Shown here piece by piece: positions 5,485 to 6,455 of a DNA stretch of 13,774 nt. The stretch covers positions 1 through 13,774 of the IMG/VR virus record IMGVR_UViG_2778261448_000011. One strand, written 5' to 3'. The notes under the pieces are model-generated. The model saw nothing but the letters and a program-made list of their open reading frames with translations. It was not told the DNA's origin and ran no database searches. How positions within the stretch are numbered: position 1 is the stretch's first letter; each line of letters starts with the position of its first letter. The stretch is from a virus. Lineage: Duplodnaviria; Heunggongvirae; Uroviricota; Caudoviricetes. The position numbers and the translations under genes are program-made.

Positions 5485-5850
5485 ATGGAAGAACAAGCAA
5501 ACAAGATTCTCGTAGAACTACTGCAAAAAGCCAGTAATGGAATAGACGCGGCTGTTTCATTTAGCCAGGCACAGATTCCTGATGTCATCCATCAGCTTTT
5601 GATGTGGCACGCCGTATCATCAGCTGGAATTCAGGCTATCTGTGTATTGGTGATTATAGCGTGTGTTTATCTGATGATTTTTGCATGGAATAAAGGAGGT
5701 GATGCAGATATTATTCTTTTATCACTACTTGTCACATCAGGAATAGAGATTACTTCTATTGTTGTTTTCTTCAATTATTTCGACTGGCTGAAAATTTGGC
5801 TTGCTCCAAAACTTTACCTTATCGAATATGCAGCATCATTGGTTAAGTAA
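5485..5850 (+). CDS. Small membrane protein (121 aa, two predicted TM helices) in the sieB slot
   Basis: RBS gaggtg (5475-5480) before ATG 5485; hydrophobic segments AGIQAICVLVIIACVYLMIFAW and ADIILLSLLVTSGIEITSIVVFF. Confidence 0.6.
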   Translation: MEEQANKILVELLQKASNGIDAAVSFSQAQIPDVIHQLLMWHAVSSAGIQAICVLVIIACVYLMIFAWNKGGDADIILLSLLVTSGIEITSIVVFFNYFDWLKIWLAPKLYLIEYAASLVK

Positions 5851-5854
5851 TTTC

Positions 5855-5881
5855 AGGCCGCATAGTCGGCCTTTATTTTTG
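5855..5881 (+). terminator. Rho-independent terminator (tL1-like)
   Basis: Stem aggccg (5855-5860), loop catagt, stem cggcct (5867-5872), then ttatttttgg. Confidence 0.6.
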
Positions 5882-5999
5882 GCATAAACAACAGAATAAA
5901 CACTGCACTGTGTATTCATTCCAACGAGTGAATACACGGAGCAATGTCGCTCGTAACTAAACAGGAGCCGACTTGTTCTGATTATTGGAAATCTTCTTT

Positions 6000-6027
6000 G
6001 CCCTCCAGTGTGAGGGCAATTTTTTTG
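6000..6027 (+). terminator. Second rho-independent terminator, directly abutting the next gene's RBS
   Basis: Stem gccctc (6000-6005), loop cagtgt, stem gagggc (6012-6017), then aattttttt (6018-6027). Confidence 0.55.
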
Positions 6028-6038
6028 ACGGAGGAATT

Positions 6039-6455
6039 ATGGAAATTACAGATATTCTGGTTAATCCAGATAATTACGACCAATTCAATATCTCTACTCA
6101 ATCAGTTGATTTGGGTTGTGCAACTGTCAGCGCATGGCTACTTAATGGTAAACAGTTGGATAAATGCCTTGATGCACATATGACGGTTAACAGCTTCCTT
6201 GCAGAAAAGACACACTGGCAAGATGCTGGAGGGAAATATGCTGGATGGCTTGAAAGCATGGGATTTGAATATCAATCTGATGAAGGTTGGTGGAGCCTTA
6301 TAGCTGTAACTCCTGAGACAATAGAATGCTTCGTTAAATACTCAAACGACGATGACTATAAACACCAGGTGGATTCTGCGATAGAAAGATACAAAAGAAA
6401 ATCGTTCAACCACGAAATATCATCAGTTCTTGATTTCATAGAAATCTTCAAATAA
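6039..6455 (+). CDS. Hypothetical protein (138 aa) in the ral/ea10 slot
   Basis: ATG 6039 with RBS ggagg (6030-6034); the six-frame ORF from 5985 would run through the terminator hairpin, so the internal start is preferred. No motif recognised. Confidence 0.6.
   Translation: MEITDILVNPDNYDQFNISTQSVDLGCATVSAWLLNGKQLDKCLDAHMTVNSFLAEKTHWQDAGGKYAGWLESMGFEYQSDEGWWSLIAVTPETIECFVKYSNDDDYKHQVDSAIERYKRKSFNHEISSVLDFIEIFK

Follow-up and report, generated by a model that had tools for sequence, protein, structure and literature searches.

Layout of the segment between N and cIII

We analyzed a 13,774-nt stretch of a Caudoviricetes virus (IMG/VR record IMGVR_UViG_2778261448_000011, positions 1 to 13,774; hereafter "the window") and focused on positions 5485–6455, the accessory segment between N and cIII of a lambdoid early-left operon; its counterpart in lambda contains sieB, ral and ea10. 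The window covers the early region of a prophage of the lambdoid type, its + strand running along the leftward (pL) operon, and the gene order is N, gene A, the block of the small RNA PreS, gene B, cIII and kil. Gene A encodes a protein of 121 amino acids (aa) with two membrane helices and gene B an acidic, soluble protein of 138 aa (Table 1). A first-pass annotation, made from the sequence without database searches, had placed the two open reading frames (ORFs) directly after N in a sieB/ral-type accessory position, with a terminator behind each of gene A and an inverted repeat, and with the ribosome-binding site (RBS) of gene B after the second terminator. The ORFs, N and both terminators were recovered at the positions it gave, and the lambda layout bore out the accessory position. 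Its picture of the terminators and the repeat as bracketing the genes did not survive: they belong to one conserved block, near-identical to the lambda ral–ea10 region, in which PreS ends at the terminator tL2a.

Our interpretation of the architecture, which we hold with high confidence, joins the identity of the block as PreS/tL2a with the independence of the two genes. A constant core (5855–6038) would comprise the terminator-like hairpin t1, then the 14-bp hairpin, then PreS (LPR1), the Hfq-dependent small RNA that ends at tL2a, and genes A and B would be independent cargo occupying variable slots on either side of it.

Table 1. Positions of the features in the window and the support for each
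Feature	Position	Strand	Description and support
Gene A	5485–5850	+	121 aa, two membrane helices; PHROG 3054 (Sf6 gp34 family); slot upstream of PreS; ORF, full-length PHROG match 1.5e-46
t1, terminator-like hairpin	5855–5881	+	AGGCCG-CATAGT-CGGCCT + TTATTTTT; stem 5855–5872, 6 bp (5 GC); terminator scan passed
14-bp RNA hairpin (inverted repeat extended)	5908–5939	+	loop CAAC; folds at −22.8 kcal/mol, z = −7.6
PreS (LPR1) small RNA homologue	5940–6027	+	5' end inferred from the ~88-nt size in lambda; dnaN-pairing blocks 5974–5984 and 5989–6000
tL2a (terminator 2)	5998–6026	+	PreS 3' end, Hfq-binding part; 8-bp stem 5998–6019, T7 6020–6026; terminator scan passed
Gene B	6039–6455	+	138 aa, acidic, soluble; PHROG 8967; slot downstream of PreS (Ea10 slot); full-length PHROG match 4e-87
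pL promoter	4708–4736	+	TTGACA-17-GATAAT, inside lambda-type oL operators; promoter scan 11/12
Putative nutL	4783–4816	+	boxA GCTCTTTAAC 4783–4792; boxB hairpin GCGCTGACAAAGCGC 4802–4816; read from the sequence
Antiterminator N	5141–5476	+	111 aa; Pfam PF25694 N_peptide 2e-25; PHROG 271
cIII and kil	6539–6810	+	conserved pL operon resuming; Pfam cIII 5e-28, Lambda_Kil 2e-20

A PreS homologue between the two genes

LPR1, now called PreS, is a small RNA of the lambda ral–ea10 region that depends on Hfq; it is ~88 nt long, is processed to ~68 nt, has its 3' end at tL2a and is made in the lytic cycle only (bioRxiv 10.1101/2024.10.31.621285). Its pairing site is located shortly before the dnaN start codon; the RNA raises DnaN (the beta-clamp), lowers alaS and aids phage replication (bioRxiv 10.1101/2024.10.31.621285).

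We aligned window positions 5840–6050 with their counterparts in lambda, Sf6, HK633 and one Escherichia coli prophage and found nearly all columns invariant from the T-tract of terminator 1 to that of terminator 2, which identifies window positions 5873–6030 as the lambda ral–ea10 intergenic region. The PreS part is 99% identical to lambda over 86 nt and 100% identical to Sf6 and HK633, which places the window copy within the limits that the preprint used for LPR1 (identity of 92% or more, no more than 3 gaps). Since the lambda RNA ends at tL2a, terminator 2 is tL2a; the Sf6 record labels its homologous site "homology to phage lambda; tL2A" and the block "bsq4; boundary sequence." With its end at the U-tract, an RNA of 88 nt would start at about position 5940, one base past the 14-bp hairpin.

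The likeness to lambda includes the position in the pL operon, the 3' GC hairpin with its U-tract and a single-stranded region complementary to the dnaN leader. The two copies differ in a terminator stem pair that is G–U in lambda and A–U here, a compatible change, and in one additional T in the T-tract of the window; the flanking genes are ral and ea10 in lambda but genes A and B here. Hfq binding, lytic expression and DnaN up-regulation are known for lambda alone, whereas the window copy is known from its sequence.

We compared the single-stranded part of the window PreS (5970–5999) with the dnaA/dnaN junction of E. coli K-12 and obtained a predicted duplex of −29.7 kcal/mol, located at −47 to −11 from the dnaN start codon and containing perfect blocks of 12 and 11 nt. 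Shuffled sequences reached −15.4 ± 2.6 kcal/mol, and none of 1000 was as good. With full-length PreS in duplexfold, 121 of 300 shuffles were as good, and the single-stranded region was used instead. From the near-identity and the retained dnaN complementarity, we infer that the window PreS would work as it does in lambda.

The block was found in 2240 of 5426 complete E. coli genomes (~41%), with up to six copies per genome, and carried no annotation in the sampled RefSeq rows. A search of the whole window against Rfam 15 at the gathering score gave no matches, and PreS appears to be absent from that database.

Hairpins of the conserved block

Terminators were sought with a consensus-based scan and promoters with a scan for sigma-70 consensus sites only. 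The 3.6 kb scanned contained seven terminator-like sites, against 2.7 ± 1.7 in shuffles, and the entire intergenic RNA (5851–6038) gave a fold z of −5.8. In the consensus scan, both t1 and terminator 2 have a GC-rich hairpin and a U-tract, as for intrinsic terminators. The t1 hairpin is moderate (−9.7 kcal/mol, z = −1.35) and is the first terminator-like site encountered by pL transcripts. Its T-tract motif was present in 53 of 112 PreS loci and is less constant than the rest of the block; an identical hairpin stands behind an Nmad5 gene in a prophage locus (L042), whereas the hairpin is degenerate in lambda and Sf6.

The first-pass annotation had described a 9-bp inverted repeat at 5910–5937. 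The repeat is exact and was matched in none of 200 shuffles, but the structure is longer than described, forming a 14-bp RNA stem. We looked for this hairpin at 138 PreS loci, viral contigs that were retrieved by the exact 46-nt PreS core and had enough flanking sequence, and found it at ~132 of them. In the remaining six (L010 3873–3900, L067, L090, L108, L149 and L155), its place is taken by an 11-bp hairpin of unrelated sequence (AUAGCAGAUU/AGUCUGCUAU), and homology to the window restarts at the inferred 5' end of PreS. Replacement of a whole stem with preservation of the structure argues for selection on the structure and not merely for sequence homology. The pattern suggests that the 14-bp hairpin may be a working part of the small-RNA unit, for example a processing boundary or a stabilizer of the 3' end of the upstream mRNA. 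The main text of the preprint on lambda PreS (10.1101/2024.10.31.621285) makes no mention of a hairpin, stem-loop, precursor or cleavage.

Independent cargo in the two slots

Across 112 PreS loci, the last upstream ORF fell into at least 15 families and the first downstream ORF into at least 11. The upstream slot holds, for example, Ral, gene A/gp34 or an Nmad5-like gene, and the downstream slot Ea10/DUF2528, gene B or a Sf6 gp33-like gene, or the block leads directly to cIII. Among the downstream variants, homology continues through the common RBS to the ATG.

In an unbiased sample of 94 loci, collected via PreS alone, the gene A family was present in eight and gene B in three, and a single locus held both; one of the eight gene A matches was the window allele. 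Conversely, PreS preceded gene B in all 23 lambdoid loci found via gene B, and gene A stood upstream in 3 of the 23. Gene B may also follow an Ea10/DUF2528 gene, and in rV5-like virulent phages it occurs without gene A nearby. Among the 5426 complete E. coli genomes, gene B was found in 37 and the window allele of gene A in 43; the exact combination of the window was found in none. (A count of 2263 genomes was rejected as a count for gene A and belongs to the intergenic block.) Genes A and B are thus independent, swappable cargo flanking a conserved PreS core, and the earlier suggestion that gene B is a partner of gene A fails on this distribution.

Papers on Sf6 deletions and on mosaicism around lambda Red contain nothing on genes A and B. 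In the P22-like phage L, most early-left genes are without known function (PMC8022706). That paper also mentions an early-left pentapeptide-repeat gene, orf232, similar to one that we observed at L032 2913–3581.

Gene B, an acidic protein of a phage-restricted family

Gene B starts 12 nt past the U-tract of tL2a (ATG at 6039), behind an RBS (GGAGG, 6030–6034) that is common to other cargo genes of the slot, and all homologues have the same Met start. Lying beyond t1 and tL2a, it should need N-mediated read-through for its expression; on its sequence context, gene B would be made only from N-antiterminated read-through transcripts.

A word-indexed search gave homologues in 10 clusters and an exhaustive HMMER search 62 remote representatives. 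The family motif is DWGGxYAxWLxxxGIxxx(S/T)xNGWWSxxAVxPxNIxxF, in which aromatic, glycine and hydrophobic residues make up most of the conserved positions and no catalytic set is obvious. Acidity is a property of the whole family (median pI 4.7, and pI below 5.5 in 49 of 53 members), and the predicted fold is compact and very confident. We ran the structure-based homology search that the first-pass annotation had proposed and found no relatives of gene B in PDB or BFVD with Foldseek; a sequence-profile search of PDB had no match with E below 0.37. When 57 family members were scanned against Pfam, the only matches were isolated and due to chance; no member has a Pfam domain or name, and a third homologue search, with the family profile, gained no named relatives. 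Gene B matched no defence model of PADLOC-DB 2.0. Homology to Ral or Ea10 of lambda was looked for and not found (hhalign probabilities of 0.1% and 0.8%, respectively). Lambda Ea10 (DUF2528, PHROG 646) occupies the same slot between tL2a and cIII, and gene B likewise starts ~12 nt past the tL2a U-tract; the two have no sequence relationship, however, they coexist in one locus (L043), and gene B has homologues in rV5-like phages.

The family is phage-restricted. Its sole match in a plasmid collection was the genome of an rV5-like phage, and gene B is therefore not a plasmid leading-region gene. The homologues in Vequintavirinae (rV5-like, virulent) are 66% identical and lie within arrays of small hypothetical genes, and those in diverged lambdoid phages lie between an N-like gene and recombination genes. 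In a single case, on a high-GC phage contig (L038 3896–6051), a distant homologue has a C-terminal extension of ~190 aa (331 aa in total) and is followed by an RtcB-like ORF.

Gene B may be an anti-defence or host-takeover inhibitor that binds, for example, a restriction or immune component, which would explain its sharing by temperate and virulent phages; we consider this a possible reading, though a doubtful one. The family-wide acidity, the restriction to phages, the early or delayed-early position in several phage types, the seat in a hypervariable cargo slot and the compact fold with its conserved aromatic, glycine and hydrophobic positions are all consistent with it, as is P22 gene 17, which sits in the same slot and which we take to be an anti-exclusion gene. 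Acidity is, however, common in early phage proteins and not diagnostic, neither of the two candidates compared, Ral and Ea10, is similar, and no structural relative in PDB or BFVD names a target.

Right after the gene B stop codon, at 6456–6470, we observed a 5-bp all-GC hairpin (GCCGC-CAAGC-GCGGC) with a tail of only TTT. The terminator scan did not pick it up, and in E. coli prophages it accompanies the gene B cassette.

Gene A, conserved ends on a variable membrane anchor

The hydrophobic segments of gene A lie at residues ~45–67 and ~75–97, in agreement with the two transmembrane helices of the first-pass annotation. The homologues form 573 clusters, none with a Pfam domain, and PHROG 3054 is a family of unknown function. 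Across the family, the N-terminal ~44 aa and the C-terminal ~22 aa (…DWLKIWLAPKLYLIEYAASLVK) are nearly invariant, including in virulent phi92-like and N4-like phages, whereas the pair of membrane helices and the loop that joins them (7–51 aa) are hypervariable. On this conservation pattern, the working part of the protein is probably the pair of invariant terminal segments, held on a hypervariable two-helix anchor. In the virulent phi92-like and N4-like phages the homologues are among the early-region genes, and further homologues were found in Vibrio phages.

Sf6 gp34 is a homologue with 53% identity by tblastn (63% in a MAFFT alignment) and near-identical termini, and it sits directly upstream of the PreS/tL2a block in the layout gene 34, bsq4/tL2A, gene 33. 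It differs in being 140 aa long with a long inter-helix loop, against 121 aa and a 9-aa loop in the window, and in the genes ral and 36 standing between N and gene 34. At the DNA level, the window and Sf6 alleles have their ends alone in common. The HK633 record (L002 2896–3258) splits the region into HK633_045 and HK633_044 despite an intact 121-aa ORF, 98% identical to gene A; the split is probably a mis-annotation. A note in that record on similarity to "VT2-Sa p20" was considered and set aside, as it concerns a different, overlapping ORF call.

Scans of genes A and B and the neighboring ORFs with Pfam, NCBIfam and PADLOC returned nothing for either gene, the best PADLOC-DB 2.0 model for gene A, "2TM effector," being not significant (E = 0.099, 10 bits). 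The first-pass annotation had seen no similarity to SieB, and we found none: BLASTP gave no alignment with lambda SieB and hhalign a probability of 0.3%. Both are membrane proteins encoded beside N in the same accessory region. SieB, however, has 184 aa and is encoded on the strand opposite to the pL operon, whereas gene A is in line with pL and without a promoter-like site of its own. The lambda sieB gene is expressed in the lysogen.

The RBS of gene A (GAGGTGA) begins 8 nt past the N stop codon, a distance also given for the start codon of the gene. The terminator scan found no strong-stem terminator-like site between pL and position 5855, and gene A should therefore be expressed together with N. 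The sigma-70 consensus scan gave no + strand promoter-like site between pL and gene A, and pL is repressed by cI, so that the gene would be silent in the lysogen. On this reading of the sequence, gene A would be an immediate-early product made with N. The position had earlier been called dependent on N antitermination, a description that does not fit a gene lying upstream of the first terminator.

An early-lytic exclusion role is conceivable for such a protein. T4 Imm-type proteins are small inner-membrane proteins made early in lytic growth that act in exclusion. By analogy, gene A, likewise a small membrane protein and predicted to be early, could block DNA entry of secondary phages or modify the envelope, a reading that we consider unlikely. 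Immediate-early expression with N and the small two-helix form would fit it, as would the presence of homologues among early genes in several phage genera, virulent as well as temperate, and an inter-helix loop whose length and sequence variation suits a surface under diversifying pressure. Against it, gene A has no match to annotated exclusion families in PHROGs or PADLOC, and the invariant parts are the termini rather than the loop, a pattern that suggests a conserved target inside the cell or in the phage.

Proposed lytic-phase roles and the alternatives

The homologues of genes A and B among the early genes of virulent phages favor lytic-phase accessory functions for both, an assignment for which we see roughly even chances. 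In the mechanism that we propose, gene A would be expressed as an immediate-early gene with N and its product, a membrane-anchored early protein, would act on a conserved host or phage component; gene B would be delayed-early, through N read-through, and would encode a nonenzymatic binding or inhibitor protein. A more novel reading has three parts, and we regard it as improbable. In it, gene A would engage a conserved target with its invariant terminal segments; gene B would be the founder of a family confined to phages, whose members are small, acidic and early and have a fold absent from solved structures, and would act as a new inhibitor of host defence or of a host machine; and the hairpin abutting the PreS 5' end, in its two unrelated sequence versions, would be a required processing or stability element not yet described.

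The first-pass annotation had favored an exclusion or abortive-infection function. In its full form, gene A would be a SieB/RexB-like membrane effector and gene B its partner or an anti-restriction factor, with the terminators bracketing and controlling the pair, and this we consider very unlikely. The position does correspond to the lambda sieB/ral region, gene A does have two membrane helices and a faint, nonsignificant "2TM effector" match, and neither protein is of known function. The two genes are nevertheless distributed independently, a small-RNA gene and the two terminators of a conserved lambda block stand between them, and neither BLASTP nor profile comparison relates them to SieB, Ral or Ea10. 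Exclusion by a prophage also needs expression in the lysogen, but the only promoter found upstream of gene A is the cI-repressed pL, with which gene A is in line, whereas lambda sieB lies on the opposite strand; and members of both families are found in virulent phages, where there is no lysogen to protect. A lysogen-expressed exclusion pair is thus less likely than the lytic-phase accessory roles. The idea that the intergenic block is a mere recombination linker with no RNA function in this phage fits the "boundary sequence" label of Sf6 and homology that begins and ends exactly at the edges of the cargo genes, but we consider it very unlikely as well, given that in lambda this sequence is the source of an Hfq-bound small RNA whose targets have been validated and which affects phage yield, that the dnaN seed complementarity is intact here, that an unrelated hairpin at the same position in six loci argues for structural selection and that a linker role and an RNA role can coexist.

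Several points weigh against our preferred interpretation, a PreS core flanked by cargo genes with lytic-phase roles. The functional class assigned to genes A and B, itself an even call, comes entirely from context and distribution. The activity of PreS, t1 and tL2a in this prophage is deduced from the identity to lambda and from consensus scans, and Rfam holds no PreS family and hence no curated model to apply. Charge bias leaves it ambiguous how gene A is oriented in the membrane. The promoter scan covered sigma-70 consensus sites, and gene A may have a weak lysogenic promoter; the terminator scan covered intrinsic sites, and Rho-dependent termination could act between N and gene A; and t1, with just six base pairs and its modest z, may be leaky.

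The RNA elements of the segment are already explained by published lambda biology and are therefore not to be counted as a new regulatory device, and genes A and B are further members of families of unknown function. The remainder is phage dark matter in the form of two early gene families that are conserved and unstudied. The PreS block is common in E. coli yet unannotated in RefSeq and absent from Rfam, with the consequence that annotation pipelines keep rediscovering it. The slots flanking it are a defined hotspot of early cargo swapping and a handy place for mining accessory genes, gene B above all, and the hairpin at the 5' boundary of PreS raises the small question of how the RNA is cut from the pL transcript. 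The best leads are the unseen fold of gene B together with its sharing by temperate and virulent phages, the conservation pattern of gene A and the PreS 5' hairpin.

The surrounding operon

The + strand of the window carries cI, pL, nutL, N, cIII, kil, a RecT-type recombinase gene, xis and int. The window cI is 95% identical to that of lambda, and the surroundings of pL (TATCTCTGGCGGTGTTGACA) resemble lambda oL/pL. N matches lambda N in PDB 6gov, with 32% identity to lambda N overall and a conserved C-terminus. The boxB sequence (GCGCTGACAAAGCGC) and the arginine-rich motif of N (GNAKTRRHERRRKLAIER) we take to be of the P22 type. Read from the sequence, the immunity and antitermination module (3029–5476) is a hybrid that combines lambda-type cI and oL/pL with an N of presumably P22-type motif and lambda-like C-terminus.

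Between nutL and N, behind GGAG, a 39-aa ORF (4981–5100, + strand) encodes one hydrophobic helix (MLEIITNPILGGAIITFAIGIGFTIWSEVDDWMWERKNK) and matches PHROG 7482, of unknown function, at 1e-22. A perfect 8-bp hairpin (GACACACA-TTCA-TGTGTGTC) at 5106–5125 adjoins the RBS of N on its upstream side and could be a regulatory or processing structure of the N leader; the N leader of lambda carries an RNase III site.

In the rex position, 3' of the lambda-like cI (3960–4517, + strand), we found ORFs of 120 aa (PHROG 13858) and 42 aa (PHROG 12503), both of unknown function. Co-oriented with cI and just downstream of it, they have a better claim than genes A and B to a defence or exclusion role in the lysogen. 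A terminator-like hairpin follows the two ORFs at ~4487–4517.

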